This document shows, in pieces, positions 14,336-63,243 of a stretch of 64,000 bases of DNA (positions are counted from its first letter, which is position 1; every line of letters starts with the position of its first letter). The DNA is taken from contig CP066690.1 of NCBI GenBank assembly GCA_016432465.1, forward strand, positions 250,702-314,701, written 5' to 3'. The notes under the pieces were generated by a model. It ran no database searches and was not told where the DNA came from. It was given only the letters and a program-made list of their open reading frames with translations. Both the position numbers and the translations under genes were made by a program. This DNA comes from Candidatus Sungiibacteriota bacterium. GTDB taxonomy: Bacteria > Patescibacteriota > Minisyncoccia > Sungbacterales > HO2-52-23.

Positions 14336-14392
14336 TCAAGAATACTGCACCACAATCTGACTTTTGGGAATTTGACCGACCGATATTACTAA

Positions 14393-14436
14393 ACCACTTA
14401 CGATCGTAAGTGGTTTAGTAATATCTGGTGTGGCGG
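14393..14436. repeat. perfect 44-bp palindrome GATATTACTAAACCACTTACGATCGTAAGTGGTTTAGTAATATC
   Basis: read directly; exact dyad symmetry. Confidence 0.7.
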
Positions 14437-15331: not shown

Positions 15332-15587
15332 TATGACGCAAAAAACCTGCCACGATTGCGGTGTTGAGGTCGGTAAATTTCATGAGCCTGGATGCGACAC
15401 GGAAGAGTGCCCGTTCTGCCACGGCCAACTCATCTCTTGCGACTGCTGTTACGAGCACCTCCATCTCGACCCGGAACAGGAACCAACCTATTCCGAGGGG
15501 CTGAACGAAGAGCAGCAGGAGAAGTGGAATAAAATCCTCCTAGAAAAGGGATTGATCCCTTATGGCAGGGAGACTCATTTCGGATGA
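15332..15587 (+). CDS. small Cys-rich (zinc-ribbon-like) protein
   Basis: CHDCG..CPFCHG..CDCC pattern; GAAAGGGGGG ribosome-binding site before the ATG. Confidence 0.45.
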
Positions 15588-15842
15588 AAAACCGAAACAA
15601 ATCCATTCAGGCGCACGACCTTCGGGTACGGCGCCTTTCTTTTTTTCTAAATTTTGATAATGGATTTTCATAAAAGAATTTGCCGCCAACTTTCGACAAG
15701 CTCAAGTCAAGAAGAAAAACTTGAAATTGTCCGGTTCGCGGCGAAGCCGCTCCAAATAAAAAAGCGCCATAAACAAAGTGATGACGCAAACATTGAAAAT
15801 AAAAAGCGGGTTGATATTATCTCACCGCACCTTACAATTACT

Positions 15843-16118
15843 TTAGTATATGCTCCAATAATCCGTGCCGTCTTGCACATAAATAGCTGGTCCTGCAGGC
15901 ATTTTTAGCGCCCACCCGGGACCGTACGAGACTTTATAGTTTGGATTTATTTGGGTTACTGTTTCCTGTAATAGTTTTCTAAATTTTGGGGTTAAAACCT
16001 TCTTTCTATCGCTCGAATTAAAAAAGTCTCTGCAGGGAAAACCGTAATTACCACCATTCTTACTAACAGTCTTTACCACATTCAATAGTCTTTTCTGCAT
16101 TTTGTTAAGCCTGGGCAT
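15843..16118 (-). CDS. hypothetical protein
   Basis: 91-aa ORF, basic N-terminus; no motif recognised. Confidence 0.35.
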   Translation of the reverse strand: MPRLNKMQKRLLNVVKTVSKNGGNYGFPCRDFFNSSDRKKVLTPKFRKLLQETVTQINPNYKVSYGPGWALKMPAGPAIYVQDGTDYWSIY

Positions 16119-16256
16119 TGGTTCTCACCCCCATTTGTACCCTATTAAAGTATAACTCCTTTATACATTGTTGTCAATAGCCCGTAATAGGGTATTGACT
16201 TACGGTATTTTTATACTTAAGATGGGTAAAATCCGGCTTACGAAGGTGAAGACTAG

Positions 16257-16811
16257 GTGTGGTTCTTTGAAATATTTATTGTTGGCATATTGGTCTACAT
16301 CTTTGTTGTTTTTGGACTTGCCCAGTTTGTAGTTCCAAACTTGCGAAGAGTGAAAACACCAAAAGAGGTGGGTGAGGAACTCAAACAAATCATTGAAGAA
16401 ACAAATCGTACAGCAGCCAGTGATCTGGAATTTGTTAAAACCGTACTCTTTCTCCTACGGCAGCGGTTTTTTGTAAAACCCGGGCAGATATTCATCACTC
16501 CGTGGATCTTGTTTCGTAAAGATGTGGATAGAATTTGGACGATGACGGACACAAATCAATGCTGTACAGTACTTAATCTCCTGTTAAGAACTTTTTTAGT
16601 AAAAAGCGGAAGATTTAAGGAGGAAGACCTTGAAGATCGCAGATGTATTCTGGGGGTTTGCATCCATCAGTATCTATTAGTGCGTATGAAAAGCGGGGCT
16701 AGTATGCCGCTTGACCCTTGGGGTTATCTTGCAAAGAGGATACCTCCGGGAGAGCATGCACACGGCTTTTTCCTGCCGTTTTTTAAAAGACCAAAAAACC
16801 ACCCATACTAA
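16257..16811 (+). CDS. hypothetical membrane protein
   Basis: N-terminal TM helix; followed by terminator CCACCC-ATACTAA-GCGGGTGG-TTTTTT at 16793-16828. Confidence 0.45.
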   Translation: MWFFEIFIVGILVYIFVVFGLAQFVVPNLRRVKTPKEVGEELKQIIEETNRTAASDLEFVKTVLFLLRQRFFVKPGQIFITPWILFRKDVDRIWTMTDTNQCCTVLNLLLRTFLVKSGRFKEEDLEDRRCILGVCIHQYLLVRMKSGASMPLDPWGYLAKRIPPGEHAHGFFLPFFKRPKNHPY

Positions 16812-16828
16812 GCGGGTGGTTTTTTACG
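16793..16828 (+). terminator. rho-independent terminator
   Basis: GC stem of 7 bp plus a T6 run directly after the stop codon. Confidence 0.6.
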
Positions 16829-16927
16829 AACGACGCTCCACGCAGCAGAGCTGCCGCGGAACTATCAAGTGAACATAGCTTAAATAAATTTAAAGCCGCA
16901 GAACAAGTCATGCGGCTATAGTGATGG

Positions 16928-17389
16928 TTATCTTCTTCTTTTATATTCTTTTCTTGCTTCTAGCCAATCTGTAGCAACCGTGTCAGTATCCGGCATGCGT
17001 GCACCTAAAGGAGCCAAAAAAGTTGCTACTGTCGTTACAAACCCTGGAAGATTCAGCATCCAAGCAAGTTGTCCTGCAAATCTACATTTTTGGTCCGGGG
17101 TAAGAAAAGTGATGCCTCCCGAAAGGGACGGAACAAGCAGATAATGTAAGAACTTACGCAATAGGTTGATATCTATATGTTCTCTGAAATATTCACAAGC
17201 AATTTCTACTAATCTGATGTAGCTCCATTTTACTGTTGGTTGTCTATTCCACTGCCCATTGCAAGGACCAACACCAGACATGGCCTCAAATATGCAATCC
17301 AGCAAATCTTCTCCACTAGTCCATCTACCATCTACCTTGAGTCGTCTTAACCTCCATTCGTTAATTTGCTCAACAGTCATTCCCATCAA
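16928..17389 (-). CDS. hypothetical protein
   Basis: 153-aa ORF; no motif recognised. Confidence 0.4.
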   Translation of the reverse strand: MMGMTVEQINEWRLRRLKVDGRWTSGEDLLDCIFEAMSGVGPCNGQWNRQPTVKWSYIRLVEIACEYFREHIDINLLRKFLHYLLVPSLSGGITFLTPDQKCRFAGQLAWMLNLPGFVTTVATFLAPLGARMPDTDTVATDWLEARKEYKRRR

Positions 17390-17652
17390 AGACTCCTTAG
17401 CGTGTGAAGCGAACCCAAAGTTAATTCAACAAGTCCACAATTAATCCAGCTATAGTTACCGGGATAAGGAGTACCAGCCACCAGCCCCCAAAAAACCAAC
17501 AAGCTATTAATCCAAGGATAAACCGCGGAAGGAAAAACCCGAAAATGCCAAGGAAACAATATCCCAAAAACTCAAGCATGACTTCCCCTCCCAAAACGAA
17601 CCAAAACAAGGATAGCACAAACGTGCTATTTTGTAAACCTCAAGGGGTTGGA

Positions 17653-19131
17653 TTATTGAAGCTCGTTTAGTTTTGCGCGTGTTTTCGGACCTACTGTTCC
17701 GTATCCTGTAGTAACCGGAGTGCCGCTGCTGACAATGCCGTATTTTTTCTGGAACCGCTGTACAGCTCGCTCCGTAGCTGGACCGAAAAAACCGGTCACA
17801 AGTCCTTCCGGATACAAAACCGGGTCTTTTTTCAAAAATTCCTGAAGCGCGCTAACCCGCGGCCCACGCGAGCCCCTCCGCAGAACTTGCGTAAAAATAA
17901 CCTTGGCTGCCGCACCGGAAGAGAGGGGCGCTGGCGTGGATACGCCCACCGTTGGGGTCGGCGCCGGAGGAGGTACGGATAGTGCCGTAGAAATCACAGT
18001 GCCTTCGGGAAGCACTGTCAAAGCAACACTTTTTGCGAGTATGGAGTAATACTCACCCGGTTTTTTAGCAGGAATCAGAGTAAGTATTACATTCTGTGAA
18101 GTCTTATTTTGGTTCCGGAAAAATAGTTTTAGCGTGCCCGAAGAGTTTAAATCGTTCGTGAAAACATAAAAGTCGCCGCAGAGAAGAAAGAGTGCGCTGG
18201 TCTGACTACTAGTCGCAGTAATATTGTTTACGCAGGATATTTTAAGATTCGCGCCCTTAGCATTAACAGTGGACCAGCTGATATTTAACGGCTTGTAAGA
18301 TTCAACAACCGTGGTTGATGCCAAAAAATAATCAATTGAAGGATCGGGAATAACATCAGAGGCTATGGTTAAAGTAAGATCAAGCGCATGGAGAGCATCA
18401 TAAGTGGGGGTGGGAGTCAGGGTAATAGCCGGAAGCAGGGTTAATTTATAAGACAGGGGGACTTTAGAGGAATTGGTAAAATTAAGACTTAAGGACGACG
18501 AGGGCCCGAGTGGTGTTGTAAAAATAGGGGTGTTGCAAGGAATATTGTAAGCGGCGGTGTAGCTTGGAGAGTTGACTTTGATATCGGATTGGCACTCAAT
18601 CTGAAGGTTGACTCCTTCAATCTCCTGCGAGGTCCAATTAATAGTTACCGGGACTACGGGCAGGGTTGTGGTGGCCGAAGCCCAAAAACTGGTAAGGGTT
18701 TGGGGAGCCGTAGAAACGTTTATACTAATATCCCGCGCCAAAGCATCACGATCATCTCCTGACGCATTTTTAGGAATCAGCCGCGCAGTTATGGTTTTAG
18801 TGCCTCCGCTTACGTTCGAAATTATTACCCGTATGAGATCGTTTACAACAAGAGTAGTAGAAACCTTGGTATCGCAAGGAAAAACACTGCCATTTATATA
18901 TTTTAGTTTAATTCCGGCTTGACATGTAATTAAAAAGGAATAGCCGCCCGCATTCTGCATGGTCCAGGAGAAATCAACCAAGCCTCCGGAAAGAGTGGTA
19001 GTGGGGCTGGCCACAAAAGCGGAGATGGATGGTTCAACCGGTACCAAGGCGGCATACTCCTGAGCAAATACAGCTGGCGCAGAAACAAGGAGGATGCTGG
19101 GAAATAGTAACCCAAGAAATAGTGGTCTCAT
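17653..19131 (-). CDS. secreted cell-surface protein with C-terminal putative peptidoglycan-binding domain
   Basis: signal peptide MRPLFLGLLFPSILLVSAPAVFA; S/T-rich repetitive body; C-terminal segment RVSALQEFLKK...GFFGPATERAVQRFQKKYGI matches the PG_binding_1 pattern. Confidence 0.6.
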   Translation of the reverse strand: MRPLFLGLLFPSILLVSAPAVFAQEYAALVPVEPSISAFVASPTTTLSGGLVDFSWTMQNAGGYSFLITCQAGIKLKYINGSVFPCDTKVSTTLVVNDLIRVIISNVSGGTKTITARLIPKNASGDDRDALARDISINVSTAPQTLTSFWASATTTLPVVPVTINWTSQEIEGVNLQIECQSDIKVNSPSYTAAYNIPCNTPIFTTPLGPSSSLSLNFTNSSKVPLSYKLTLLPAITLTPTPTYDALHALDLTLTIASDVIPDPSIDYFLASTTVVESYKPLNISWSTVNAKGANLKISCVNNITATSSQTSALFLLCGDFYVFTNDLNSSGTLKLFFRNQNKTSQNVILTLIPAKKPGEYYSILAKSVALTVLPEGTVISTALSVPPPAPTPTVGVSTPAPLSSGAAAKVIFTQVLRRGSRGPRVSALQEFLKKDPVLYPEGLVTGFFGPATERAVQRFQKKYGIVSSGTPVTTGYGTVGPKTRAKLNELQ

Positions 19132-30515: not shown

Positions 30516-30577
30516 AACCTGATAATACCAGTAAAAATAGTTGACGGTCTATAGTCTACAAAGATTTTCTATAGCTG

Positions 30578-30649
30578 GGTGTCCAGAGGGAATCGAACCC
30601 TCGTAGCCGCCTCCACAGGGCGGAGCTCTACCACTAAGCTATGGACACC
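30578..30649 (-). tRNA. tRNA-His (anticodon GTG) with encoded G-1
   Basis: G-1 followed by acceptor GTGTCCA/TGGACAC and C73, anticodon stem CCGCC/GGCGG with loop CTGTGGA, T-arm GAGGG-TTCGATT-CCCTC. Confidence 0.8.
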
Positions 30650-31128
30650 GTAAGTCTTTCCTTCTCCGTATTGTAATGATGAACCAGAAAATGGCAATTG
30701 TGGCACAACCAACACAAGTTTTTCAGCTTATTATTTTTACGGTTTTGGTCAAAGTGATGAACTACTAGGACCTGTAAATCTCTTTGACAACATAATCTAC
30801 AAACCGGCGGAATCCTACTGCGCAGCAGCATATTTTTATACGCATTTTCTCCGTGCCGCCAGTTGGCATGACTTGATCCGGTAAAAGTTGAGTGTCTCCA
30901 CTTCAGTTGACAAGCCCTACTGCAAAAATACTTTTTACTTTTAGACCTATTAAGAAATCTCTTTTGCCTATAAATCTTTTTTCGGCACAGAAAACAGGCC
31001 ACAATTCTTCCATTCTTTCTGCTCCGACGCTCGCATACCAATGAGCAGTATTTACCCCATCCCTTCTTAAGCCAGTGCGGTTTGGCATAAAAAGGCTTTT
31101 TACACAGCCTACAATTTACTTGCGGCAC
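30634..31128 (-). CDS. HNH endonuclease with N-terminal zinc-ribbons (paralog 1)
   Basis: HNH motif LVVHHFDQNRKNNKLKNLCWLCHNCH; CxxC pairs N-terminal. Confidence 0.7.
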   Translation of the reverse strand: MPQVNCRLCKKPFYAKPHWLKKGWGKYCSLVCERRSRKNGRIVACFLCRKKIYRQKRFLNRSKSKKYFCSRACQLKWRHSTFTGSSHANWRHGENAYKNMLLRSRIPPVCRLCCQRDLQVLVVHHFDQNRKNNKLKNLCWLCHNCHFLVHHYNTEKERLTVSIA

Positions 31129-31693
31129 GATTGATTACGTTTAGTATTGTATTACGATGAAGCACAGTGTGACAATTATGGCAGAGCCACATTAAATTAC
31201 TTATCCTATTATTCAGGTGATTACGGTCTTTATGGTGCACGACCAGTACACGTTTGTCAGTAATCTTGCAGAAACTGCATACTTCTTCTTTTGATGCTCG
31301 TCTCAAAAAGGCGCGGTAGGAGCCGCTAGAAAAACCGCCCCTCCAGTTTAAATGCCTTGGTCCGATGTACTGCAGCGTATTACGCCAGATTGTTTGACAC
31401 GATTTGTTACAAAAATATTTCTTGCTTTTTGATTTTTGTAAATCCGCCCTTGATCTATAAATTGATTTTCCGCACAAAAAGCACGCAAGTATTTTTCCTG
31501 TTTTCTGCCCCTCGTTTTTACACTTCAGTGAACAGTACTTGCCCCAGCCGGCCCTTCTAAAGGAGGGTCGCACATAGAATCTGGATTTACAAACCCTACA
31601 CCGAGTAGCCTGCATGTAACTATAGTATAGACGCAAAGAATGAAAATGGCAAACAGGGGGCTTCAGGTTATCCACAACCTCTCGTGATAACAA
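31109..31693 (-). CDS. HNH endonuclease with N-terminal zinc-ribbons (paralog 2)
   Basis: HNH motif LVVHHKDRNHLNNRISNLMWLCHNCH; same architecture as 30634-31128; the start is probably the internal MQATRC. Confidence 0.7.
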   Translation of the reverse strand: MLSREVVDNLKPPVCHFHSLRLYYSYMQATRCRVCKSRFYVRPSFRRAGWGKYCSLKCKNEGQKTGKILACFLCGKSIYRSRADLQKSKSKKYFCNKSCQTIWRNTLQYIGPRHLNWRGGFSSGSYRAFLRRASKEEVCSFCKITDKRVLVVHHKDRNHLNNRISNLMWLCHNCHTVLHRNTILNVINRAASKL

Positions 31694-51684: not shown

Positions 51685-52920
51685 TCAAAGTGTCCTAAAC
51701 ACTTTAGCAATACGGATAAGTGCCAGTTTAAGCACGTCTTTTTCAATGATAAGGGGCGGTGAAAAACGAATTACGTTCTCGTGCGCATCCTTGCAGAGAA
51801 TCCGCTCCCCGCGCAAGGCGTCAACAAATCTGGCAGCTCCTCCTGCCTCGGGCCGCAATTCAATTCCCACCAAAAGACCCCTTCCACGCACCTCTTTTAT
51901 GTAAGGACTATAGATATTTTTAAGCTCGGATATAAAAAATTCTCCAAGTTCGGCAGCGCGCTGCGGCAGGTTTTCCCGCACAAGCAAATGCATCTCTTCA
52001 CGCGCCACGGCACAAGCCAGCGGATTTCCGCCAAAAGTGCTTCCGTGATCTCCGGGTTCAAAAACATCCATAAGTTCATTTATCCCTACTACTGCAGAAA
52101 TTCCCAAGCCGCCACCCAAGCCCTTACCCAGAAGCATTGCGTCCGGAAAAGACCCGTCATGCATATAAGCAAACATCTTACCTGTTCTGCCCAAACCAGT
52201 TTGAACCTCGTCCAGAATCATCAAAACGTGGTGAGCATCGCATATTTGACGAACATCGTTTAAGTAGCCGTCCGGAGGAACCAAAATTCCACCCTCGCCC
52301 TGAATAGGCTCAACAATAATGGCTGCGGTGTTGGGGTTGATCGCTTCTTCAAAAGCTCTGGCATCACCAAATGGTATTTTTTTAAACCCGGGAACCGGCG
52401 GACCAAAAAGATCATAGTACTGGGGAACGGTTGAAGCGCTTATAGCCCCGATGGTCCGGCCATGGAAATTGTTTTTACAAACAACGATCTCGGCCTGATC
52501 TTTGGGAACTACTTTTTCTGTATAAACATCTTTTCTGGTGTAAGCCCATTTGCGCGCGAGCTTGACGGCGCTATCAAAGACCTCTGCCCCGCTGGTCATA
52601 AAAAGAACCTTGTCCATGCCCGTAAACTCGGCCAGTTCCTTAGCACAAAGAATTTTCTGCTCTTCCCAAAGACAATTCGCATTGGCCGTAAGTTTACCCG
52701 CCTGACGAATGATGGCTTTTAGGATTTGGGGATGAACATGCCCGGGTGCAAGAGCGGAGTAACAAGAAAGCAGATCAACAAAAACCCGATCTTCAACATC
52801 ATAAAGCAGTACGCCTTGCCCCCGACTGACTACTAAGTCATCGGGCGGATCATAATTTCTGGGCAAATATTTATACGCTAACTCCACCAACTCTCTGATG
52901 GTTAAAGTGCGTTCACTCAT
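51685..52920 (-). CDS. class-III PLP-dependent aminotransferase (ornithine/acetylornithine aminotransferase-like)
   Basis: about 410 aa; GxGxxG-rich PLP fold; ILDEVQTGLGRTGKMFA carries the PLP-lysine context. Confidence 0.8.
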   Translation of the reverse strand: MSERTLTIRELVELAYKYLPRNYDPPDDLVVSRGQGVLLYDVEDRVFVDLLSCYSALAPGHVHPQILKAIIRQAGKLTANANCLWEEQKILCAKELAEFTGMDKVLFMTSGAEVFDSAVKLARKWAYTRKDVYTEKVVPKDQAEIVVCKNNFHGRTIGAISASTVPQYYDLFGPPVPGFKKIPFGDARAFEEAINPNTAAIIVEPIQGEGGILVPPDGYLNDVRQICDAHHVLMILDEVQTGLGRTGKMFAYMHDGSFPDAMLLGKGLGGGLGISAVVGINELMDVFEPGDHGSTFGGNPLACAVAREEMHLLVRENLPQRAAELGEFFISELKNIYSPYIKEVRGRGLLVGIELRPEAGGAARFVDALRGERILCKDAHENVIRFSPPLIIEKDVLKLALIRIAKVFRTL

Positions 52921-53015: not shown

Positions 53016-54566
53016 CTAAACAATGAGCCGTTCCTTAAGAATTTTTTTAATTAGTTCTTCGGCCCTACGAAGCGCTTGTGTATTACTCCTGCCCGTGGGA
53101 TCGTTATTAACTGCGGCAGGATCAAACGACATCAGTATTATGTGTGACCACGAATGTCCAAGGGGCGCAAGCAGACGATTGCGGCGCGCCTGCCTTAATA
53201 CTTCCACCCGCCAAGCAGCACGAGTGGCCGGAGGATGTTTACGTGCTTCTGCAACTTCCTCGTCGGAAAAAAGCGTTTCCACGCGGCCCGAACGTACAAG
53301 CTGCGGCCAAATTCCCCAGTCGTCCAAAGCGGTTAATTGATGGTGCAGCATTAGTAAATACTCACTAAGTGAAATTTGCTTGCCGTGATGTTCTATCCTT
53401 ACTTCATGGCAAGCATCCCACGAAGTGTTGTACTGGGCGAGCTTTTTTTCAAAAAGCAAGTATTTAAACCAGCATTCGGAAACACCGGCAAGGAGGGTTG
53501 GGTCCTGCCCCAAAAGCCGGAGAATTTCTTCAAACCGATACAGCACGTCCTGGTCTTCAGCAGTAAGAGAGAGTTTATCTGCGTTTTCCCAAATTAATTC
53601 CAGATACCGCCTTTGAACTTCAAGGGCCGTGAGGGTTATGGCCGAAGCAAAATGTATGGGGGTTTTAAGTGTCGGATCACACGCTAAAATATGAAAGTCG
53701 TTAAGAATTTCTCTGTACTGATATGTCTCAAACCTAGGAAAACAGCGCGGAAAGCAGTTGTTGGCTAGGAGCCGTAGAACCAAGCTGGTCATGCCAGCTT
53801 CTACGTAAGTAATGGTGTCAGAAAGCAAGGGATCGCCCTCAATAAGCTGCAGACGCTTCCATTGGGGTAAATCGTATGATTTGTAATCTGAAAAACGGCC
53901 TGTACAGATAAGTGGACGGCGAACCGTGGTTTCACTTGAAATAGTCCCCTGAATTGCCAGCGCCCGCGGAGAAAGAGTAAAAATAATTTCCTTATCGGAG
54001 TTTGGCCAAGAGTCCAAATTTTTAGGTCCGTACAAACGAGGAGCAATGCCGCCCTGTCCTGCCCAAACAACCTTGGTCACCAGAAACGGGCCAAGATAAC
54101 TAAGCAAAAATTCGTTGGGAATACGTTGCGGTATGCGGAAATTACGGTGCAAACCCCACCAATTACCACGCCAATCGGTGCTAGCCTTTAAAAGGTGGTA
54201 CGAACCCTGCGGCAGGGAAAATCGTTTGGGGTTTTGGCAAACTCTTAAAAATCGGCCTAGAATTTCAGCATCAGCGGCGCGGCTGTAAAGTGCGGCCTCA
54301 CGCGCCCCACGGCATTCCGGCGTAGCTGCCTCCAAATGGTGATAAAAACCACGCCTCAACTCTTGAGATACACGCAGCGGATGATCAATATAAATGCGGC
54401 CGCCCATGGAATTTTCATAATCAAGAACGCGATGGTCTATTAAACATTCAGTGGCTTGTTTTAAAACAGTGCGGTAAGTCAGTTCGGGTAAGGACGTGCC
54501 GTCTTCGGGGGTAAAACTTATAGCAAATTCCTGCTCAAAACCAATAATAACGTCTTCGGGCAACAT
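53016..54566 (-). CDS. Pup-ligase/deamidase (PafA/Dop) family protein, paralog 3
   Basis: N-terminal IIGFEQEFAI (compare PafA IMGIETEFG), ATPECRG (compare PafA ATAECDS), C-terminal SDEEVAEARKHPPATRAAWR (compare PafA [22 protein letters not shown]). Confidence 0.7.
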   Translation of the reverse strand: MLPEDVIIGFEQEFAISFTPEDGTSLPELTYRTVLKQATECLIDHRVLDYENSMGGRIYIDHPLRVSQELRRGFYHHLEAATPECRGAREAALYSRAADAEILGRFLRVCQNPKRFSLPQGSYHLLKASTDWRGNWWGLHRNFRIPQRIPNEFLLSYLGPFLVTKVVWAGQGGIAPRLYGPKNLDSWPNSDKEIIFTLSPRALAIQGTISSETTVRRPLICTGRFSDYKSYDLPQWKRLQLIEGDPLLSDTITYVEAGMTSLVLRLLANNCFPRCFPRFETYQYREILNDFHILACDPTLKTPIHFASAITLTALEVQRRYLELIWENADKLSLTAEDQDVLYRFEEILRLLGQDPTLLAGVSECWFKYLLFEKKLAQYNTSWDACHEVRIEHHGKQISLSEYLLMLHHQLTALDDWGIWPQLVRSGRVETLFSDEEVAEARKHPPATRAAWRVEVLRQARRNRLLAPLGHSWSHIILMSFDPAAVNNDPTGRSNTQALRRAEELIKKILKERLIV

Positions 54567-54618
54567 AAAACCACCCGGTTTTCAGGAACTAGTTATAGCA
54601 TAGGAGTGTTTAGAAATT

Positions 54619-56268
54619 TTACAAGCTTTGGTGCTGATTACTCCGGGGATTGCGTAATTTTGGCGTCACCCAAAAACTCATGTATTTCCCCAGCATTAAA
54701 CGAGTTTGCGCGTCAATCCCCGGAACAGAACCAAAAGTAATAATAGTCAGGGGAAGAAACGCCCACTGCAATATCATAGAAAGCCAAAGATACTTTTTTT
54801 TATGGGGCGGGCGGGGCGGAAGAAGAGAAGAAGAAATAATAGCAGAGGTTATAATACCAGCCATGGAAAGCGTCATTAAAAGTCTGGTAATACGCGGGAG
54901 ATTATAAGAAAGAACTGTCACGTTAAATTTGGCGCCGCCAAGAATCAGGGGCAGCCAACCCAGAAGAAAAATAATCAGGGCGTTGGTCGCCCAAGACCAA
55001 AAACCCTCAAGTTGTACAAAAGACCAGTAAAGCTTTGGACGAAAAGAGATTTTTTTATTTTTTAGAAAACCAAACACAAGATACGGAAAATTTTCCACTC
55101 CCCAGCCCCAACGCCGCTGTTGTTTATATACATTTTTAACGGTCTCCCCCAATGTACGTCCGACGTTGGCATCCATGGAAACCGGATAAAAAAGCGGGAC
55201 CGTCCTCCAGTCTCCGTCATAAAAAAGAAGCGACTGCCAAAAAATACGGGAGTCTTCGGATACAATGTTGGTTTGCCAATAGTTCATTTCAACCAAGGGC
55301 TTGAGCGGTATGGAATGCGAAGAAAACGTGGAAAGACGCTCGGCTCGCGCCTGCTGCATCATCTGCCAAAAAGTGCCGGAGGAGGCCACCACTCGCGAAA
55401 AAAAAGGCGCATCCCAAATGTTGTTATTATAAATAGGAATCGGCTGATAAGAGGAGCGAAGCGGATGCGCGGTTGTCAGATAATGATATGTTATTACCCC
55501 GAAATAATGCGGATAAATGCGTGTATCAATGTCAAAAGATGAAACTAAAACCTGCTCGTATTGAATTCCCAGACTATCAATAATTTTTTCTTTGGCCTCT
55601 CTTGCGGCCCATGTTTCGTTGGCCCCCTTCCCCGGAATTTCGCCCGCAATATCAGTCGGGTGCTCGCTTATTATAAATTTAAAAAAGGACCTGCTAAATT
55701 CCTGTCCAAGGCGACTGGCTATGAATCTTGCTTCCTCTCCGGCCCGCTCCTCTACGCCCAAGACTAAAATAATTTTATCTTTAGGGTAATGCGCCTGTTG
55801 GATCGCTTCCAGAGATCCGCGCACCACCCCATACGGCTCTTTATAAAAGGGTAAAATAACCAGATGGTAGATATCGCGCCAGTTTTCTACTTTAAGTTGC
55901 GGGTTGTAAGCCCTAATCTCCTCAAGTTTCGCCAACCAGTCCAATTTTAAATGCTGCTTCATCTTTTTGTAGCTGGCGCGGAGATGCCAAGATAGAAATA
56001 TGGTTTTGAGAAGCCAGTAAGCGTCAAAAATAACAATAAAAAGGCTCGCCGCAGCCGGTGCGCGCCAGGAAATAAAAATAATACCGGCCAGGGTGGCCCA
56101 GAGCATTATGCCGGGAACTGTTTCCAAAAATCTAAAAAGGTAGTATCCGCGTGCTAACGAAACATCAGCGGCCCGTCCCAATCTAAAGTAATTTTTTTTC
56201 TCCATGGTACGTTTAGCGTTACATATTGAGTTATAAAAATCAAAAATGTCGGGAGTAAAACCCGACAA
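54619..56268 (-). CDS. membrane-integrated family-2 glycosyltransferase (processive, cellulose-synthase-like)
   Basis: QxxRW motif (YKQQRRWGWG); D,D-type GT-A core between N- and C-terminal TM bundles; 549 aa. Confidence 0.65.
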   Translation of the reverse strand: MSGFTPDIFDFYNSICNAKRTMEKKNYFRLGRAADVSLARGYYLFRFLETVPGIMLWATLAGIIFISWRAPAAASLFIVIFDAYWLLKTIFLSWHLRASYKKMKQHLKLDWLAKLEEIRAYNPQLKVENWRDIYHLVILPFYKEPYGVVRGSLEAIQQAHYPKDKIILVLGVEERAGEEARFIASRLGQEFSRSFFKFIISEHPTDIAGEIPGKGANETWAAREAKEKIIDSLGIQYEQVLVSSFDIDTRIYPHYFGVITYHYLTTAHPLRSSYQPIPIYNNNIWDAPFFSRVVASSGTFWQMMQQARAERLSTFSSHSIPLKPLVEMNYWQTNIVSEDSRIFWQSLLFYDGDWRTVPLFYPVSMDANVGRTLGETVKNVYKQQRRWGWGVENFPYLVFGFLKNKKISFRPKLYWSFVQLEGFWSWATNALIIFLLGWLPLILGGAKFNVTVLSYNLPRITRLLMTLSMAGIITSAIISSSLLPPRPPHKKKYLWLSMILQWAFLPLTIITFGSVPGIDAQTRLMLGKYMSFWVTPKLRNPRSNQHQSL

Positions 56269-56293
56269 GATTGCGATTAAACGGCGGATAAAC

Positions 56294-57985
56294 TCACCAA
56301 GCAGATCCTATCTCTCTCAAAAGGTCCTGCGGCCTTCCTTTTTCCAGCTCCCGTACCCGAAAAAGATAGGGGTTGGGATTTTGAATCGTCCTGAAAATCT
56401 TATAAGAGCCCGGCAATGAGACTTCGGCCTGACGAATAGTTATACCTTCCCAGCCGCACCCCTGCAGTGCTAAATTCTGTTTAACCCCCTCTGTCTCTAT
56501 CCAGCGGAAAATTTTTTCACGCCAGGCGGCTCTGGTATAGGGCGGAGGGTTATCAGCAGCGCGCTCTATTTCCTCCTTTTTAAACAACCGCTTAACTTTT
56601 TCCTGCTCCAGCAAAATACCGTAAGAACTTTTGTCAGTCTCTACATTGGCATACTCCACTAAAAGGTGTAAAAGATAATCTATAAGTTTAGCGCGGCCCC
56701 TACGGGTTTCCAAAGGAATATCGCGGGGTATATTTTTTTCTCCGGCGTTACGATAATAAGACGGCAGAGGGGCAATAAGTTGCTCAACTTCAAGGCCGAG
56801 TCGGGCCAAAAGCGGAGTTATACAATAGTAAAGTATGGCTGCCCAATCAAGGATCTGGGCAAGATAGGCAAGATCCCAACGGTCTAGAGCGTCAATCACT
56901 TTTTCCCAAAGCTCAAGCGCCATGCGTCGCTCCGGAGTAAGTTCCCCCCGTCCCTCATCTATATAGCGGTGCACCTCACCTATATAGAAGCGCTGAAAAT
57001 CAAGGGCGTTCCATTTTTCCCCACCAGCCAAAAAAACGACTTTTTTTGACTTTATGTCAGCGTTGAAAAAGGTCGCCCTTTCTGCAACACTATTCAATCT
57101 TCCATCTCTAATTAAAGGGAGAATCGGCAGAAATTCGTTCTCTTCAAGCAGCATAAGCATTAGATCAAAGGTGCCATATTTTAAAAAGAGCTGCCATTCA
57201 GACATATTGGAGTTTCCGGAAATGTCATGGAGTCTCCGCCAGCAGTCTTTATCCGCATGGGGCTCGTCTCTGGTATTAATAAAAGCCCTGTCTATCCCGG
57301 TAGTATCCGGGCCGTCATATTTAGTCATTAGGTTAGCGCGCTGCGAAAGGTAAAACCGTACCCATCCTCCGGCAAGTGGTTCAACCCACCCATTGCCAAT
57401 AATACAGGGGCGGGTCATAAGAAACGGTACGAGGTGTCTTCGTAAAACTTCGTAGCCAATACGCCGCGGGATCAAATAATTAGCGTGGTGACCCCATGTT
57501 TCCAGAAACCCAGACGCATTGAAGTACTCACAGTTGCGGTTACCCTTGTAAAAATGCACTTTCGGATATTGCGGTTTAAGCGTGCGGAAAAGACGCACGC
57601 CGTCAGCCACCATCTCCATGCCGGCAACTTCGTGCAGAACCGCTTCTCTGGTGCCTCTACACTCCGGGCTTGCATACTCAAGGTGGTTATTACGTTCACT
57701 ATAGCATTGTCCCTGATTGGGAAGCACAAAACGACCGCAGGTAAAACTGCGAACCGATTCAATATCCAGGGCTCCTCTTATGATACAGGCATGGATTATA
57801 CGCGATAGAACTTCACGAAGAAAAGCATTGGTGTAATATCCCGATGGCCCGATGACGCGTGTCCCGAGTTCCAGCTCCAGGCCGATGATACGGTGCTTTA
57901 TACGTTTGGGTCCGCCTCTATTGTTGACCTGACCCATAGGACCGCACTCCGCCTTGCTTATCAAAGTACATAACCATAGTAACAA
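56294..57985 (-). CDS. Pup-ligase/deamidase (PafA/Dop) family protein, paralog 2
   Basis: [12 protein letters not shown] N-terminus, [15 protein letters not shown], and [26 protein letters not shown] (compare PafA [26 protein letters not shown]); C-terminal [19 protein letters not shown]. Confidence 0.75.
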   Translation of the reverse strand: [563 protein letters not shown]

Positions 57986-58084
57986 AATATAAATAAAGCG
58001 CCAGAGCTCTGCTCTGGCTTTTGGGGCTTACTAAGACCTCTTGTACAATAACCCTTCGTAACGAAAGTTATTATGCAAAAGTCT

Positions 58085-58321
58085 TTACTCGCCACCTCTT
58101 TGTACGTAACTTCTTACAAACTCCTCCGCGTTTCCTTCCAACGTTGCATCAATATCTTCCAGAAGTTTATCCATATCTTCTTTTAGCTTCTTGCTTTTTT
58201 TCTCAGCGGCCTGACTGACTTTTTCTTCTTCGCTTTCTGGCTTGTCCTTTACTTTTTCTGCGTTCTTTTGCTCTTCCGCCACTTCTGCCTCCCTTTGGTG
58301 GCCCTTATTGAAGTTTAACAC
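58085..58321 (-). CDS. pup: Pup-like prokaryotic ubiquitin-like protein ending in GGE
   Basis: 78 aa, disordered acidic/lysine-rich body; C-terminus MDKLLEDIDATLEGNAEEFVRSYVQRGGE parallels the Pup consensus ...DDLLDEIDGVLE.NAEEFVRAYVQKGGQ/E. Confidence 0.75.
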   Translation of the reverse strand: MLNFNKGHQREAEVAEEQKNAEKVKDKPESEEEKVSQAAEKKSKKLKEDMDKLLEDIDATLEGNAEEFVRSYVQRGGE

Positions 58322-58357
58322 AGCGCCGTAAATAATGCAATCCGATATCCAATAGAT

Positions 58358-60220
58358 TTAGGACCCAAACCAATCATCATCTTCGTCAAATGGCTGCTGC
58401 GGGACAAAATCGCCGGAGTATACTGGTTGTTCCGGTGGACGAGGAGGATGACGAACCAGCTTCTCGTAGAGAGCCTTGCTCCATTTTTTATGGGTGTCCT
58501 CCCTCTCCTCATCGGTCTCAACCCTAAGACCGTGGTCCGGATACGGCTTGACGTCTTCACCCTTACCAAGAGTTTTTCTTGTACTCCACATGTCCTCGCA
58601 ACGCACCACCTCAACAAAGGGGTGGACTCTTACGACATCAACAAATTCCACAAAAGGCAGGGAAAGAGATCTAGTCCAAAATTCTTCGTTCCAGAGCTCG
58701 GTTGGGTCGCCCAGAGACAGGGAATAAATTTTCTTCTCATGCCTAAACGTAATCCTATGCCAGAAGTCCGAAGAAATGACTAACTCCGGATACCCTTTAA
58801 TAATTTCCAAAACAATCTTGGAGCGGGTGGGCGGAGGTCCGTCCATGGCCTGCTTAATCTCTTCGTCCGTAGTGATACGATAACTGTTTGGGTAAATTTT
58901 GGTGTAAAAAATTCCGCTTTCGTGATTGTTATCGTGGTATTCACAATCCAGCCTCATGGCCAAATCGTCCTGCCACGTTTTTCCTTTTTTCACCAGAGCA
59001 GCTTCAATAAAATTCAGCTTGGTTACCCAGTCCAGCTTACCGTGAAGGCTAACCCGCCAATCTGACCTACCAAAGGCGTCCAAAACAGAGGCAAATTCTG
59101 CCACCACCCGCTTTAATATCTGATTTTCGGGGTGATATGCCTCTACGTAGTTGCCAAAAAGGTCGCAGTAGTCACGCAAACAGTCCAGCGCCAGACGCGA
59201 ACCCTTATGGTTAATAAGCCAGACACGTTTTTTAAGGCTGGTATCCCAGGAGATTTCGTGGAAGGCACCAACCGGATGGCCGATTTCAAAACGATGGTCC
59301 AAAACTCCGTCCTCCATCATCATGTAAAGAATGGCTGTCAGTCCTGCTTTCATGAATTCCGGAAGCTCCAACATATTGGAGTCGCCCGGGATTACGTGTC
59401 CACGTCGGAAGTTTTTTTCTTCGCCGTAAACAACGTTGCGGGTGTTATGAATAGGCCGGTTGTAGGAGGTTTCTATGTTGGCAACTGCGCTGAAAAAATC
59501 GGCCCGCTGGGAAATCTGAAAATCCACATCTACAATATCACTTCCCCGATGGGACCCGGCCCCTAAACAGTCGCCTCCCACCTTTCCGGCGCCTATTACA
59601 ATAGTCCGCATGACAAACCAAGGAACGTCCTTGCGTATTAAATCATCCTCGCTAACACGGCGCGAAATTGTATAATTTTCATGGCAGGCCCAAGAGCTTC
59701 TTGGAACCCTCTCCCCCCTTTTTCTACTTCTGGCACGATGCCAATCATCGTCTCCGGCGGTATTGTTTCTAAACACCCTGAAATTCCGCCCTGCCGCCTC
59801 ATGTAATTTGCGCAATCTGTCGATCCAGCGGTAACAGGCCCTGTTCCAAATAACCAGCATGCGCGGATCGCTACAGATAGCTGTAGAAATTTCAGTATGG
59901 GGACCGATGTCTACATAAAGACGCGCGCCATTGGGAAGCAGTATGTTCAAAAATTTCTGCCACATTTGTCTTTGAAAGAAGCTGTGGGGGTTGAGGGTCG
60001 AAACCTCTACTTTGCGCAATCTCTCAGTCGGATCCCAAGAAAATATTCCTTGGGCTCCCAAAACCCATTCCGGCTCAATGCTTTCTACAAAAGCAAAACC
60101 ACCCGAGTAGGCAGCGGGGGAACCAGCATGCATTACTCCAAGTTCTGTTTCTATCCCGCACATCTTGGGAGTGGCTCTAGATTCGGGCATCATCTTATCC
60201 TTTTCAAGGCGCTTTCCCAA
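58358..60220 (-). CDS. Pup-ligase/deamidase (PafA/Dop) family protein, paralog 1 (Dop-like by position), with acidic proline-rich C-terminal extension
   Basis: KMCGIETELGV N-terminus; TDEEIKQAMDGPPPTRSKIV near the C-terminus; lies between the mpa-like gene and pup as dop does in actinobacteria; 620 aa. Confidence 0.7.
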   Translation of the reverse strand: MGKRLEKDKMMPESRATPKMCGIETELGVMHAGSPAAYSGGFAFVESIEPEWVLGAQGIFSWDPTERLRKVEVSTLNPHSFFQRQMWQKFLNILLPNGARLYVDIGPHTEISTAICSDPRMLVIWNRACYRWIDRLRKLHEAAGRNFRVFRNNTAGDDDWHRARSRKRGERVPRSSWACHENYTISRRVSEDDLIRKDVPWFVMRTIVIGAGKVGGDCLGAGSHRGSDIVDVDFQISQRADFFSAVANIETSYNRPIHNTRNVVYGEEKNFRRGHVIPGDSNMLELPEFMKAGLTAILYMMMEDGVLDHRFEIGHPVGAFHEISWDTSLKKRVWLINHKGSRLALDCLRDYCDLFGNYVEAYHPENQILKRVVAEFASVLDAFGRSDWRVSLHGKLDWVTKLNFIEAALVKKGKTWQDDLAMRLDCEYHDNNHESGIFYTKIYPNSYRITTDEEIKQAMDGPPPTRSKIVLEIIKGYPELVISSDFWHRITFRHEKKIYSLSLGDPTELWNEEFWTRSLSLPFVEFVDVVRVHPFVEVVRCEDMWSTRKTLGKGEDVKPYPDHGLRVETDEEREDTHKKWSKALYEKLVRHPPRPPEQPVYSGDFVPQQPFDEDDDWFGS

Positions 60221-60272
60221 GTGTAACCACAGCCGAAAGAAAAATCCACCCTAGGGGGTGGATCAATTGATT

Positions 60273-62201
60273 TTACAGATACTGACCGCCGCTAATGGTT
60301 TCGGTCGTACGGCTCGCTTCTTTCTTTTTCTTCCGCCCAAGGTTGGGGGTGACCCCAACAATACGCTCCCGTCTACCCTGCATAGCAAGCCACATTTGGG
60401 CATCGTCCAGAGTATTGGGTAACTCTTCATTCTCATCCATTTCATCAGATACGGCCACGCAGAAATCTAAGGCCGTGAGACCAAACTCCCCGCCGCTGAC
60501 AGCACGCTTAACAACATGTTTCTTGGCGCGCTCCACTATACTTTTAATCATCGCGCCAGACACCAAGTCTTTAAGGTAAATAGGAAGCTTTGCCCCATCA
60601 TGCAAAACTACATCCATAAGTTTATTGTCTGCTTTAATTAGCGCTCCTGACGCATCCCGATATTGATAAGGCTCTTCGTTGGTGGCCCAGAGCCGCTTCA
60701 CGGCCTCGGTAATAATATGTTCAATTATCAACTCTGGCTTGCCGCCCCACTCCTGATAGCTGGGAGAAAACTTGGGGTGTTTGGGATTTTGATATTTAGG
60801 ATGAAGAGGAAGATTTTTTGTGACGTAAATGGAAAAAATTTCCTTGGCGCCATCCTGATCCGGGCGATCAATCCTTATCTTGATGTCAACGCGTCCCGGA
60901 CGAAGCACGGCTGGGTCAATCAAGTCATGACGGTTGGAGGCAAGAATAATAATAACATTAGCAAGCGTTTCTATACCGTCCAGCATCACTAAAAATTGCG
61001 GCACAATTGTAGTTTCAATGTCTGAAGAAATCCCCCTACCTCGGGTGCGCAGTACCGACTCTGCCTCATCCAAAAAAATAATAACCGGGTGGTCCTCGCT
61101 TGCCTTTTCTTTGGCCCGCTGGAAGATCTCACGAATTTTGCGCTCAGTCTCGCCAACGTACTTATTTAGAATTTCCGGGCCCTTGATGTTTATAAAATAT
61201 CCCTTGATGCTCTTTCCCAGTTTATTAGCAAGGCGGCTAGCCAGCCCATTGGCCACGGCCTTGGCAATTAGGGTTTTCCCGCAACCCGGAGGGCCATAAA
61301 GCATAATTCCCTTGGAAAGCTCCATTTCAAGTCTCCGGAAAAGGTCCGGGTAAAGATACGGAAGCTCAATAGCGTCGCGGATCTTACTAATCTGTGTTCC
61401 CAGTCCTCCGATCTTTTCATAAGTAACGCCCGGGACTTCTTCCAACAGCAGTTCGCTGATTTCATGCTTGGGCAGAGCCGCGATGCCGCCCAGAAACATA
61501 CCACTGCCCGCCTGCGGCAGAAGCCATTTATCCCCCACGCGCATACTCTGCATTATTTCTGCGGGCCAAGTCTTGGGAATCAGGGCAATGTGTTTTTCAT
61601 CAAGCCTGGTTACGAATCTAACCCGGTGCTCGTCCAAAATCTCATCAATAGTAACTTCTTCTCCGGCCATAGTCAGTACGTCCTGAAGCTCGTCAGAGGC
61701 AACGGCTACAATATTGGAATGCTCATTCATCATTACAAATCTGCCGCGCACCAGTTTTTCTTTTTCCTGATTAAAAACTTTGTCGGTTATATGCACCCGC
61801 AAAAGACGCGCACCCACATAAACCCAGAAGGTTTCTTTTTCTTCCCTGTGTAGATGTCCCTCATCGTCTCTTTGTTCGGACACCTCTTTACCGCCATAAA
61901 TTAGTACTGCGGCAATGCCATGAGGCGGAGAGGTCAGGGCATTTAATTCTCTGCTCATCTCTATAGCTTCCTGACGAAGCTCCGTCAGGGCCCGCACTAG
62001 ACCGCTATTCATCTCCCGCACTCGTTCCGCAAATGCCTCCAAATCATAAATTACGCTGTCCACGCGAGCCCTAAGCTCTTCAACCCTTGGACGACTCAGG
62101 ACAGTATTATCTTCAAGCACCCTACGAACTCCAAAAAGATTAGAGCGAGCTTTTTCAAAAAGGGATTCAAAATTGCGAGACGGATCGCGATCCTTGTTCA
62201 T
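60273..62201 (-). CDS. proteasome-associated ATPase-like AAA+ protein (Mpa/ARC family) with C-terminal GQYL
   Basis: N-terminal coiled coil, OB-like middle region, Walker A GPPGCGKT and Walker B DE; the protein ends ...ISGGQYL, the Mpa proteasome-docking motif. Confidence 0.8.
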   Translation of the reverse strand: MNKDRDPSRNFESLFEKARSNLFGVRRVLEDNTVLSRPRVEELRARVDSVIYDLEAFAERVREMNSGLVRALTELRQEAIEMSRELNALTSPPHGIAAVLIYGGKEVSEQRDDEGHLHREEKETFWVYVGARLLRVHITDKVFNQEKEKLVRGRFVMMNEHSNIVAVASDELQDVLTMAGEEVTIDEILDEHRVRFVTRLDEKHIALIPKTWPAEIMQSMRVGDKWLLPQAGSGMFLGGIAALPKHEISELLLEEVPGVTYEKIGGLGTQISKIRDAIELPYLYPDLFRRLEMELSKGIMLYGPPGCGKTLIAKAVANGLASRLANKLGKSIKGYFINIKGPEILNKYVGETERKIREIFQRAKEKASEDHPVIIFLDEAESVLRTRGRGISSDIETTIVPQFLVMLDGIETLANVIIILASNRHDLIDPAVLRPGRVDIKIRIDRPDQDGAKEIFSIYVTKNLPLHPKYQNPKHPKFSPSYQEWGGKPELIIEHIITEAVKRLWATNEEPYQYRDASGALIKADNKLMDVVLHDGAKLPIYLKDLVSGAMIKSIVERAKKHVVKRAVSGGEFGLTALDFCVAVSDEMDENEELPNTLDDAQMWLAMQGRRERIVGVTPNLGRKKKKEASRTTETISGGQYL

Positions 62202-62270: not shown

Positions 62271-62747
62271 TTGACTTTGTTGCAGAAAAATGATATTATA
62301 ATAATATGCGACTTGCGTTTTGTCTTATCAAAAGGGGGGCGTTCGGTGGGGCGGACGTATCGAGGGCCCAATCGGGAGCTTAAACTTTCAAAAAAAGGAA
62401 GACGTCGGTGGCAACCACTGACGGGTGGAAGAAAACAAGTAGTAATCGGACGGGCGCTGGAAGCCGACGTAACTTCTGTACTTGAAACTCTTCGTGTTTC
62501 CGGGGCCATTGACTCGTATCTATACCACGAACCACACAGTGAAAAGGACCAACAGGGTATTGATTTTACGGTTGTTCGTGGACAAAGTACCATTGAGTTC
62601 AATGTAACCTGTTCTTACCGAGCTTGGCGGAAAAGAGTTGTTAAGACAGGATGCCCTACAATACTTTATTTCTCTGACGAAGTGACGGCTGACCAAATCG
62701 CCGAACGTATTCTGGAACTTTTTATTCCTCCGAACGTCTGTACATAA
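62271..62747 (+). CDS. hypothetical protein (coding uncertain)
   Basis: protein-like composition in the C-terminal 100 aa; a 9-bp-stem hairpin plus T-run follows at 62763-62812; it overlaps a 124-aa minus-strand ORF of equal plausibility. Confidence 0.3.
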   Translation: MTLLQKNDIIIICDLRFVLSKGGRSVGRTYRGPNRELKLSKKGRRRWQPLTGGRKQVVIGRALEADVTSVLETLRVSGAIDSYLYHEPHSEKDQQGIDFTVVRGQSTIEFNVTCSYRAWRKRVVKTGCPTILYFSDEVTADQIAERILELFIPPNVCT

Positions 62748-62837
62748 AACCAGCCGCATTCAAAAGCCCAGCGGGCTTTCCCATGTAGGAAAGCCCGCTC
62801 ACTATTTTAAACTATTTTGAGTCCTAACTCTTGCGAA

Positions 62838-62935: not shown

Positions 62936-63065
62936 ATCTTCGCTTCGCTCGATATAAACGGTTCGCTCGGACAAAATGAAAGATTGCTTTCATTTTCTCC
63001 TCGCTGCCGTTTATAAGACGCAAGCTCTAACTTCATCCCCCACCTATTTTGGACAAGATAAAAAA

Positions 63066-63137
63066 TGCGTGTGCCAGGGATCGAACCTGGGACATCCACT
63101 TTATAAGAGTGGCGCTCTACCACTGAGCTACACACGC
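63066..63137 (-). tRNA. tRNA with anticodon TAT (Ile-type, AUA-decoding; unusual)
   Basis: acceptor GCGTGTG/CACACGC, D-arm TAGCTCAGTGGTAGAGC, anticodon stem CCACT/AGTGG with loop CTTATAA, T-arm CCAGG-TTCGATC-CCTGG; flanked by complementary CCCACCTATTTTGGAC / GTCCAAAATAGGTGGGG. Confidence 0.65.
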
Positions 63138-63243
63138 AAAGTCCAAAATAGGTGGGGGGACAAGCCGAGCTACGCACCCGAAATATTATCATTGATTACT
63201 TTTATACTCATCATAATTTTTTCGAACCAGCCGATATCTGCGG

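Follow-up and report, generated by a model that had tools for sequence, protein, structure and literature searches.

A stretch of 64,000 nucleotides from the closed, 923,469-bp genome of a groundwater Candidatus Sungiibacteriota bacterium (Sungbacteria, a lineage of the candidate phyla radiation, CPR), referred to below at its full length as the window (contig CP066690.1, positions 250,702 to 314,701), encodes a pupylation-type locus, i.e. a set of genes for tagging proteins with the small ubiquitin-like modifier Pup. We are inclined to see in it a vertically maintained pupylation module whose output is probably independent of the proteasome. The locus consists of six intact, uninterrupted and co-directional open reading frames (ORFs) on the minus strand between positions 53016 and 62201, which code, in this order, for an Mpa/ARC-type AAA+ unfoldase, a Dop-like protein with the Pup-ligase fold (paralog A), Pup, a second Pup-ligase-fold protein (paralog B), a membrane protein resembling family 2 glycosyltransferases (GT2-like) and a third, divergent Pup-ligase-fold protein (paralog C). 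The full ORF spans are 60273-62201, 58358-60220, 58085-58321, 56294-57985, 54619-56268 and 53016-54566, respectively, with intergenic gaps of 36-147 nt; public assemblies use later starts that yield proteins of 610 (A), 65 (Pup), 547 (B) and 528 (GT2-like) residues. The proteins of the cluster are identical to GenBank entries QQG45596.1 to QQG45602.1, which the Prokaryotic Genome Annotation Pipeline (PGAP) names ornithine-oxo-acid transaminase, PafA2 family protein (three times), glycosyltransferase family 2 protein and proteasome ATPase, and the same locus recurs in several independent assemblies. A preliminary description of this DNA had proposed a pupylation-type locus in a CPR-like genome, with an Mpa/ARC ending in GQYL, a Dop-like protein, a Pup ending in GGE and two further Pup-ligase-fold paralogs; the profile matches presented below bear out the locus, the ORF listing its minus-strand gene order and coordinates, and the NCBI source the nature of the host. 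The rest of the window is likewise CPR-like in content, with 16 tRNAs, pilin-like N_methyl proteins and many ORFs that belong to no family.

The Mpa protein (642 aa, 60273..62201, QQG45602.1) matches the proteasome ATPase equivalog profile TIGR03689 with 511.4 bits, above its cutoff of 504.75. Comparison with Mpa of Mycobacterium tuberculosis (7px9) yields two aligned segments, the first covering the coiled coil, the OB domains and the AAA domain (residues 49-468, against 54-461 of the mycobacterial protein) and the second the β-grasp domain and the GQYL tail (residues 525-642, against 492-609); the C-terminus reads ...SGGQYL. All 13 full-length Mpa proteins of the CPR clade that were examined end in GQYL or GHYL, and the β-grasp domain is conserved too. 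Mpa binds Pup and unfolds the substrate, while the GQYL motif docks into the pockets of the 20S α-ring (PMC8755798), which is the sole documented role of this motif (PMC8755798, PMC8223512). The Pup protein (65 aa from a GTG start, 58085..58282; 78 aa if read from 58321) scores above the cutoffs of both pertinent profiles (PF05639, 64.1 bits against 27; TIGR03687, 52.1 bits against 41.45). Pup has been recognized by its small size (50-90 aa), a G[EQ] at its C-terminus and the position of its gene beside one of the PafA family (Iyer 2008, PMC2588565); the protein of the window is 65-78 aa long, terminates in ...FVRSYVQRGGE and has paralogs A and B on either side. Its last 35 residues align with Pup of Arthrobacter (LLEDIDATLEGNAEEFVRSYVQRGGE versus LLDEIDGVLESNAEEFVRGFVQKGGQ), and also with the Pups of related CPR loci. 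Thus, the profile searches that the preliminary description had suggested as a check on the three ligase ORFs and on Pup gave significant matches throughout. In characterized systems PafA phosphorylates the glutamate at the C-terminus of Pup and couples it to a lysine, a linkage that Dop reverses with the help of ADP and phosphate (PMC7947786, PMC8599861). Given that the Pup encoded here ends in glutamate, deamidation prior to ligation would not be needed, as is known for the family (PMC7947786).

The three large paralogs all belong to the Pup_ligase family (PF03136; 266 bits for A, 242.6 for B and 195.8 for C, against a cutoff of 25), but each of them falls below the equivalog cutoffs of both Dop (TIGR03688, 492.3) and PafA (TIGR03686, 551.3). 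None has a membrane or otherwise hydrophobic segment. The catalytic residues of the superfamily comprise the GhExE motif, acidic residues of strand-2, an [HQ]x[NH] motif, two arginines and a terminal [QH]x4D motif (Iyer 2008, PMC2588565). This set is retained in A; in B it is retained except for D to N in the last motif and D to E at the catalytic aspartate; and in C it is retained except for a serine that the HMMER alignment places at the arginine equivalent to Dop R227, there being an arginine in an inserted GRF. We also considered whether the glutamate of the HENY motif is catalytic, which would render B and C inactive, and rejected this reading since the superfamily motif [HQ]x[NH] leaves the middle position free. 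As the preliminary description had stated, GhExE and a C-terminal PP..TR are common to all three proteins; the TRDEPHAD stretch that it likewise attributed to all of them is found in B only. Relationships between the paralogs were assessed with a neighbour-joining tree based on simple distances and 100 bootstrap replicates, supplemented by profile scores and pairwise comparisons.

Paralog A (610 aa, 58358..60190; 620 aa from the ORF start at 60220) scores better with the Dop profile than with that of PafA (219 versus 188 bits), finds its best match among solved structures in Dop of Acidothermus (178 bits), and is placed nearer Dop than PafA by pairwise scores. The distance from GhExE to the catalytic aspartate amounts to 77 residues in A, as compared to 74-109 in Dop and 45 in PafA, and the insert that accounts for it bears a WDPTE sequence which aligns with the RWDYE of the Dop-loop, a 40-65-residue insertion before strand β-2 with a conserved, functionally important tryptophan (PMC8599861). 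The protein further displays GIETELG, YVD, SQRAD, NTR and RRGH, and the residues equivalent to E8, E10, D94, R205, R227 and H241 of Dop are all present. Its core reads NTRNVVYGE...GDSNMLE, such that the DEPH of the canonical enzymes is NVVY in the window and D.PY in the rest of the A clade. This clade (the window protein and those of the loci L007, L009, L010, L019 and L022 described below) has 100% bootstrap support and, together with the protein L021_PL558, joins Dop at 73%. In the phylogenetic check proposed in the preliminary description, A may thus associate with Dop, and B and C fall outside the PafA clade.

Paralog B (P0001; 547 aa, 56294..57937, or 563 aa as the full ORF) is marginally closer to the PafA profile than to that of Dop (199.5 versus 189.5 bits), both scores being far below the cutoffs. 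It lacks the Dop-loop, with GhExE and the catalytic position 57 residues apart, and contains GLELELG, NTRDEPHAD and RRLH, along with HANY in place of HENY and GN in place of GD; it is the only one of the three paralogs in which the TRDEPHAD...G[DN]SNMSE core is intact. The catalytic aspartate, which is shared by PafA, Dop and most members of clade B, is a glutamate in the window protein (E81 of the 547-aa form). Clade B as a whole keeps GxExE, the strand-2 glutamate, H-x-N, both arginines and RxH, with the same HAN for HEN and G-N for G-D. It is recovered in 99% of the bootstraps, and its grouping with PafA in just 1 of 100. An exhaustive HMMER search of 1.84 billion protein representatives indicates that the clade is small and discrete, with 17 representatives at 428 bits or more and the next sequence at 263 bits. 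A scan of genome contigs with the clade-B profile, in a collection that does not hold the genome of the window itself, returned one locus, which is the same as L007, and a scan of metagenomes returned 7 loci, mostly short. The residues specific to PafA, namely L-D-V-G-S around the catalytic aspartate and H.WEG.SSATTRS in the α-loop (Hecht et al. 2020, PMC7947786), are absent from B, which reads YSERNNH and NLMTKYDGPDTTGID at these places.

Paralog C (516 aa, 53016..54566) is highly divergent. It is closer to Dop than to PafA (144 versus 111.3 bits) and has homologues in only four other sequence clusters, at 40-45% identity. A confident AlphaFold2 (AF2) model based on an alignment of 41 sequences (pLDDT 88.7, pTM 0.92) resembles Dop best (TM 0.85), followed by PafA (TM 0.79) and then YbdK/GCS2. 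The protein retains GFEQEF, YID, the glutamate of HLE, HRN as its H-x-N motif, SPRA and Q-x4-D (QLIEGD), but has lost NTRDEPHAD, its core reading CTGRFSDYKSYD...GDPLLSD. It has no Dop-loop either, the spacing from GhExE to the catalytic position being 47 residues, and carries a 13-residue insertion after the catalytic aspartate. The PafA-specific residues are not found here: YIDH is followed by the insertion, and the α-loop is matched only in part (ISSETTVRR). C belongs to a clade of its own with 100% bootstrap support. In the alignments of clade B (24 sequences) and clade C (10 sequences) the catalytic columns are invariant. Judged from these comparisons the window has no clear PafA orthologue, and the earlier designation of the two additional paralogs as PafA-like does not hold in the sense of PafA proper, given that both score below the TIGR03686 cutoff, that B groups with PafA in so few bootstraps, and that C is nearer Dop.

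The other distinguishing feature of the locus is the absence of 20S proteasome subunits. Pfam searches with 30 mid-sized ORFs of the window yielded no match to PF00227, and a search with a four-sequence proteasome hidden Markov model together with phmmer, run with filters off (--max), found no 20S subunit in about 233 kb of CPR sequence (the 64-kb window plus 14 loci), the best E-value being about 5. The same search recovered the PrcB and PrcA proteins of the controls at 1e-94 to 1e-130, and in both controls, the Arthrobacter locus (L011) and the locus L023, the prcBA genes lie between pup and pafA. The earlier observation that no prcA or prcB occurs within about 9 kb of the cluster is thereby confirmed and extended to the entire window. 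Unlike at the Arthrobacter locus, PafBC, FKBP and PAC2 neighbors were not seen at that of the window.

Comparable clusters occur in several relatives, namely: 1) L007/L014 (Sungiibacteriota), with FtsH, a truncated Mpa, A, a degenerate Pup, B and PrkA, and then RecG; 2) L009 (metagenome), with Pup (GGQ), a PafA-like protein, A and Mpa (GHYL), and then B, FtsH and a GT2-like protein; 3) L010 (metagenome), with FtsH, Mpa (GQYL), B, A, Pup (GGE), a third paralog and RecG; 4) L021 (on a 1.03-Mb contig), with FtsH, Mpa, an A-like protein, Pup (GGE), a PafA-like protein, a GT2-like protein and RecG; 5) L019 (metagenome), with Mpa, A and Pup (GGQ); and 6) L022 (metagenome), with Mpa and A, where no Pup ORF was detected on a contig that ends about 3 kb downstream. 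The constant core is therefore formed by Mpa and A, with Pup detected everywhere except in L022, and the other ligase-fold genes differ from lineage to lineage, while the synteny FtsH-Mpa-A-Pup-...-RecG is kept in related loci. In L019 (10001-14310) and L022 (10001-13757) a single A-type Pup_ligase paralog lies beside Mpa, with no second paralog within 10 kb; either the ligase is encoded elsewhere in these genomes or the A-type enzyme does both jobs. In L007 (6606-9889) and L014 (6504-9603) Mpa occurs in truncated or split form (386 + 68 aa), devoid of both the β-grasp domain and GQYL, and Pup has lost the EENAEEFV..GG[EQ] signature and ends in RRHIQEKGE, with A and B still at full length, which suggests a system that is either decaying or repurposed. 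Directly downstream of the Pup genes L007 carries PrkA-PrkA-DUF444(YeaH)-SpoVR (12107-18915), in place of the GT2-like, C and ornithine aminotransferase genes of the window.

By Mpa, the closest non-CPR relative among the top matches is L023 (10001-16816), which has the canonical order Mpa-Dop-Pup-PrcB-PrcA-PafA. Its Mpa (P0139) is 735 aa long, gives two AAA matches and ends in GHYL. The scaffold does not appear CPR-like, given that thiamine genes and oligopeptide-transport genes surround the locus. The C-terminus of its Pup is almost identical to those of the CPR Pups, and hence L023 may resemble the donor lineage. In L019 a block consisting of a DUF4446 gene, followed by genes for a short IF-2-like GTPase and RbfA (3279-5890), adjoins the Pup genes; in the window (9673-11976), the ORFs that come after a DUF4446 gene resemble those of L019 in length (502 and 116 aa). 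The Pup locus thus appears to have moved relative to this block between related genomes.

In light of the above observations, we propose that the γ-carboxylate at the C-terminus of Pup-GGE would be joined to lysines of target proteins by an ATP-dependent ligase whose fold is that of glutamine synthetase (GS). Paralog B would be the best candidate for this writer, with C as a possible second or specialized ligase, and A, by virtue of its Dop-loop, would act as the eraser that removes Pup. The Mpa/ARC hexamer is predicted to bind Pup via its coiled coils and to unfold the tagged protein. Tagged proteins or complexes would lose their fold or come apart, to be recycled by A or handed on to other proteases, an outcome akin to the disassembly of ferritin in Corynebacterium glutamicum. 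A proteasome-independent output appears most likely in our analysis, because every canonical locus has prcB and prcA at a place where the present one has neither; proteasome-free pupylation is known to work in C. glutamicum (PMC8223512, PMC12288473). Which paralog ligates, conjugation itself and the lack of a 20S particle in the rest of the 923-kb genome are what we infer here.

Several points weigh against this interpretation. The unbroken retention of GQYL or GHYL in CPR Mpa proteins argues for a 20S particle or a similar partner encoded elsewhere, and the 20S search covered 64 kb of the host genome, with about 860 kb remaining. Further, with no clear PafA orthologue, a glutamate for the catalytic aspartate in B and no DEPH in A, activity is not guaranteed; the truncated Mpa and degenerate Pup of L007/L014 indicate that this group does include cases of lost function; and the tree is of the neighbour-joining type with simple distances, its node uniting Dop and A having only 73% support. 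The foremost alternative is hence a canonical Pup-proteasome system, with prcB and prcA elsewhere in the genome and Mpa docking to the 20S particle via GQYL for the degradation of tagged proteins, which we consider possible though rather unlikely. It agrees with the retention of the tail and of the β-grasp domain in every full-length CPR Mpa, with 20S docking as the only role documented for the motif (PMC8755798, PMC8223512), with the score of Mpa above an equivalog cutoff that defines proteasome ATPases, and with the full locus, prcBA included, that accompanies a near-identical Pup C-terminus in L023. However, in 20S-bearing lineages prcBA sit between pup and pafA (Iyer 2008), yet in all seven distinct CPR loci they are absent within 10 kb, as they are from the 64 kb of the window, and Actinobacteria without prcBA in the locus have been described as devoid of proteasomal subunit genes altogether, probably through secondary loss (PMC8223512).

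The proteasome-independent reading admits a bolder form, namely that ultra-small CPR bacteria run a self-contained, proteasome-free Pup system in which clades B and C, as two hitherto unrecognized subfamilies of the Pup-ligase fold, have split the ligase role or taken on new targets (for instance the GT2-like synthase or its product), and in which GQYL serves a partner or function other than opening of the 20S gate; this we hold to be unlikely. The GT2-like protein itself (528 aa, 54619..56205) was called a GT2 glycosyltransferase in the preliminary description, an assignment that its motifs and PGAP name support but for which no Pfam match was obtained. Its orthologues reach Glyco_trans_2_3 with E-values of 6e-5 to 1e-4 (22.7-23.4 bits), under the cutoff of 27; sequence searches of the PDB and profile searches with the protein gave no match; and a single-sequence AF2 model (pLDDT 41.8) was too poor for a fold search. 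Processive GT2 enzymes are defined by D, DxD, ED and QxxRW motifs in a cytosolic domain with transmembrane helices on either side. The protein displays PFYKEP(119), DIDT(225), SEDSR(316) and QQRRW(362), all invariant in three orthologues and situated between hydrophobic segments at both ends (two at the N-terminal end, three or more at the C-terminal one), and is thus a candidate membrane glycosyltransferase of the processive type. It is 63% identical among the window, L021 (16040-17617) and L009 (14049-15614), in each of which its gene lies beside Pup genes, and this makes it the most conserved protein of the neighborhood, the Pup enzymes of the same lineages being only about 40-50% identical. 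The gene is absent from the neighborhoods of L007, L010, L019 and L022.

That conservation, and the location of the gene beside a non-Dop paralog in three lineages, raise the prospect that B and C have ceased to tag soluble proteins and instead attach Pup or some other glutamyl carboxylate to a different amine, for instance on the GT2-like synthase or its product, or that one of them is a non-catalytic regulator. Each of the two belongs to a discrete clade that is separate from PafA and Dop and has its own invariant residues; the Pup ligases of Plesiocystis and Rhodopirellula are linked to a membrane protein rather than to the proteasome (Iyer 2008, PMC2588565); and GCS2 and GS, relatives in the same superfamily, ligate small amines (Iyer 2008). 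We nonetheless deem such new substrates improbable, in view of the four neighborhoods that lack the GT2-like gene, of the lack of a membrane segment in any paralog, and of the absence of direct evidence for a non-protein substrate; moreover, the adjacency may be mere inherited synteny, as for FtsH and RecG. The least probable explanation is that the locus is a decaying, non-functional remnant of a horizontally acquired Pup system. The missing DEPH in A, the Asp to Glu change in B, the strong divergence of C and the state of the related L007/L014 loci would be in line with it, but the six ORFs are intact, Mpa is of full length and above its equivalog cutoff, the Pup C-terminus is near-identical to those of functional Pups, the catalytic columns of clades B and C do not vary, and a dead cluster of about 9 kb would be unlikely to persist in a 0.92-Mb genome. 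Two other explanations were dismissed: a recent horizontal insertion of the cluster, in view of a GC content uniform with that of the rest of the window and of the FtsH...RecG synteny kept across relatives, and an anti-phage defense system, in view of the output of PADLOC, which reported only generic AAA matches to Mpa and none for the other proteins.

With regard to expression, a terminator-like hairpin just 3' of pup (58000..58018, minus strand; a consensus match only), with 8 stem pairs (6 G-C) followed by a T-rich tail, is a possible attenuator inside the cluster. Similar hairpins are found 3' of Mpa (60264-60243), B (56267-56247) and C (53011-52987), which suggests that the cluster may comprise more than one transcription unit. 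Beyond the last of them, 95 nt downstream of paralog C, lies a co-directional gene for ornithine aminotransferase (51685..52920, minus strand; Aminotran_3, 7e-114; TIGR01885, 421.7 bits with a cutoff of 378.4), which is missing from the related loci. Directly upstream of Mpa there is a small divergent ORF of 133-158 aa (62271-62747, plus strand) without a Pfam or PADLOC match; after it comes a terminator-like hairpin that is stronger than any other in the region (62770-62799; 12 pairs, 8 G-C). Further along is a tRNA-Ile with the anticodon TAT (UAU; 63065-63138, minus strand; 75 bits in Rfam). In most bacteria AUA is decoded by a lysidine-modified CAU tRNA, and this tRNA-Ile(UAU) may bear on AUA decoding in the host CPR genome. 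Elsewhere in the window, two adjoining, overlapping ORFs of 164 and 194 aa with weak matches to HNH_3 endonucleases (30634-31693, minus strand), beside a tRNA-His (30577-30648), may be the remnant of a mobile element.

In the literature searched, pupylation is regarded as a pathway that hardly occurs outside Actinobacteria and Nitrospirae, apart from sporadic transfers to other groups (PMC7947786). Pup-like systems outside Actinobacteria, proteasome-free pupylation and the GenBank labels on the present genes are already known; indeed, the novelty suggested in the preliminary description, which was not aware of pupylation in CPR-like genomes, is weaker than it appeared, as PGAP already uses the names proteasome ATPase and PafA2 family protein for these genes, and a Sungbacteria genome (RIFCSPLOWO2_01_FULL_47_10) already carries an annotated 'proteasome ATPase'. 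Searches of the literature for pupylation or the proteasome in CPR, Parcubacteria or Patescibacteria found nothing relevant, and the literature searched likewise held no description of the three-paralog architecture with its two rare, discrete clades, of the consistent lack of an in-locus 20S across CPR lineages despite GQYL, or of a recurrent GT2 neighbor of Pup genes. The conservation of the system in several Sungbacteria-related lineages implies that genomes of about 1 Mb still keep ubiquitin-like tagging. If these genomes lack the 20S particle, the fully conserved GQYL would point to a new role or partner; if the particle is encoded elsewhere, these would be proteasome-bearing CPR bacteria, of which the literature searched held no report.

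Compared with the actinobacterial Pup-proteasome system (M. tuberculosis; Arthrobacter, L011), the locus shares an Mpa with coiled coil, OB, AAA and β-grasp domains and GQYL, a disordered Pup with ...EEFV..YVQ.GG[EQ], the order mpa-dop-pup, and GS-fold Pup_ligase enzymes of which one has a Dop-loop. It differs in the lack of prcB and prcA between pup and the next ligase gene, in having three Pup_ligase paralogs rather than two, none of them reaching the Dop or PafA equivalog cutoff, and in its host, a CPR bacterium with a 0.92-Mb genome. C. glutamicum offers the nearest functional parallel, with ARC, Pup and the enzymes in a locus without 20S genes and support for a non-degradative unfolding role (PMC8223512, PMC12288473); there, however, one orthodox PafA and one orthodox Dop stand in place of three divergent paralogs, and loss of the 20S particle is established for the whole genome, as against the window and related loci here. 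In the literature searched we found no statement as to whether the ARC proteins of 20S-lacking Actinobacteria, the corynebacterial ones included, keep GQYL. The loci of Plesiocystis and Rhodopirellula (Iyer, Burroughs and Aravind 2008) similarly have Pup and a ligase unlinked from the proteasome and linked to a membrane-protein gene, but their ligases contain a four-helix transmembrane insertion where A, B and C have no hydrophobic segments, whereas in the window Mpa is present and the membrane neighbor is a GT2-like synthase.

The UBact systems of Gram-negative and candidate phyla resemble the locus in combining a Pup-like tag with homologues of Mpa, Dop and PafA outside Actinobacteria. The tag of the window scores as Pup proper, above the PF05639 and TIGR03687 cutoffs and ending in GGE, and the proteasome homologues named in the title of the UBact paper were not seen in the window or in related loci. 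Candidate phyla of the Parcubacteria group reportedly figure among the carriers of Pup-like systems in the UBact study by Lehmann et al. of 2017 (BBRC 483:946). Lastly, the single-copy PafA/Dop-like homologue of Planctomycetes (Hecht et al. 2020, PMC7947786) is likewise deep-branching and neither a clear PafA nor a clear Dop, and L019 and L022 likewise show one, A-type, paralog beside Mpa; the window differs in having three paralogs, with clades B and C distinct from the line of A and Dop. The clades A, B and C branch deeply within the PafA/Dop family and mix residues diagnostic of ligases and depupylases; they are natural test cases for the divergence of ligase and hydrolase from one ancestor, a question that Hecht et al. 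addressed by mutagenesis (PMC7947786).

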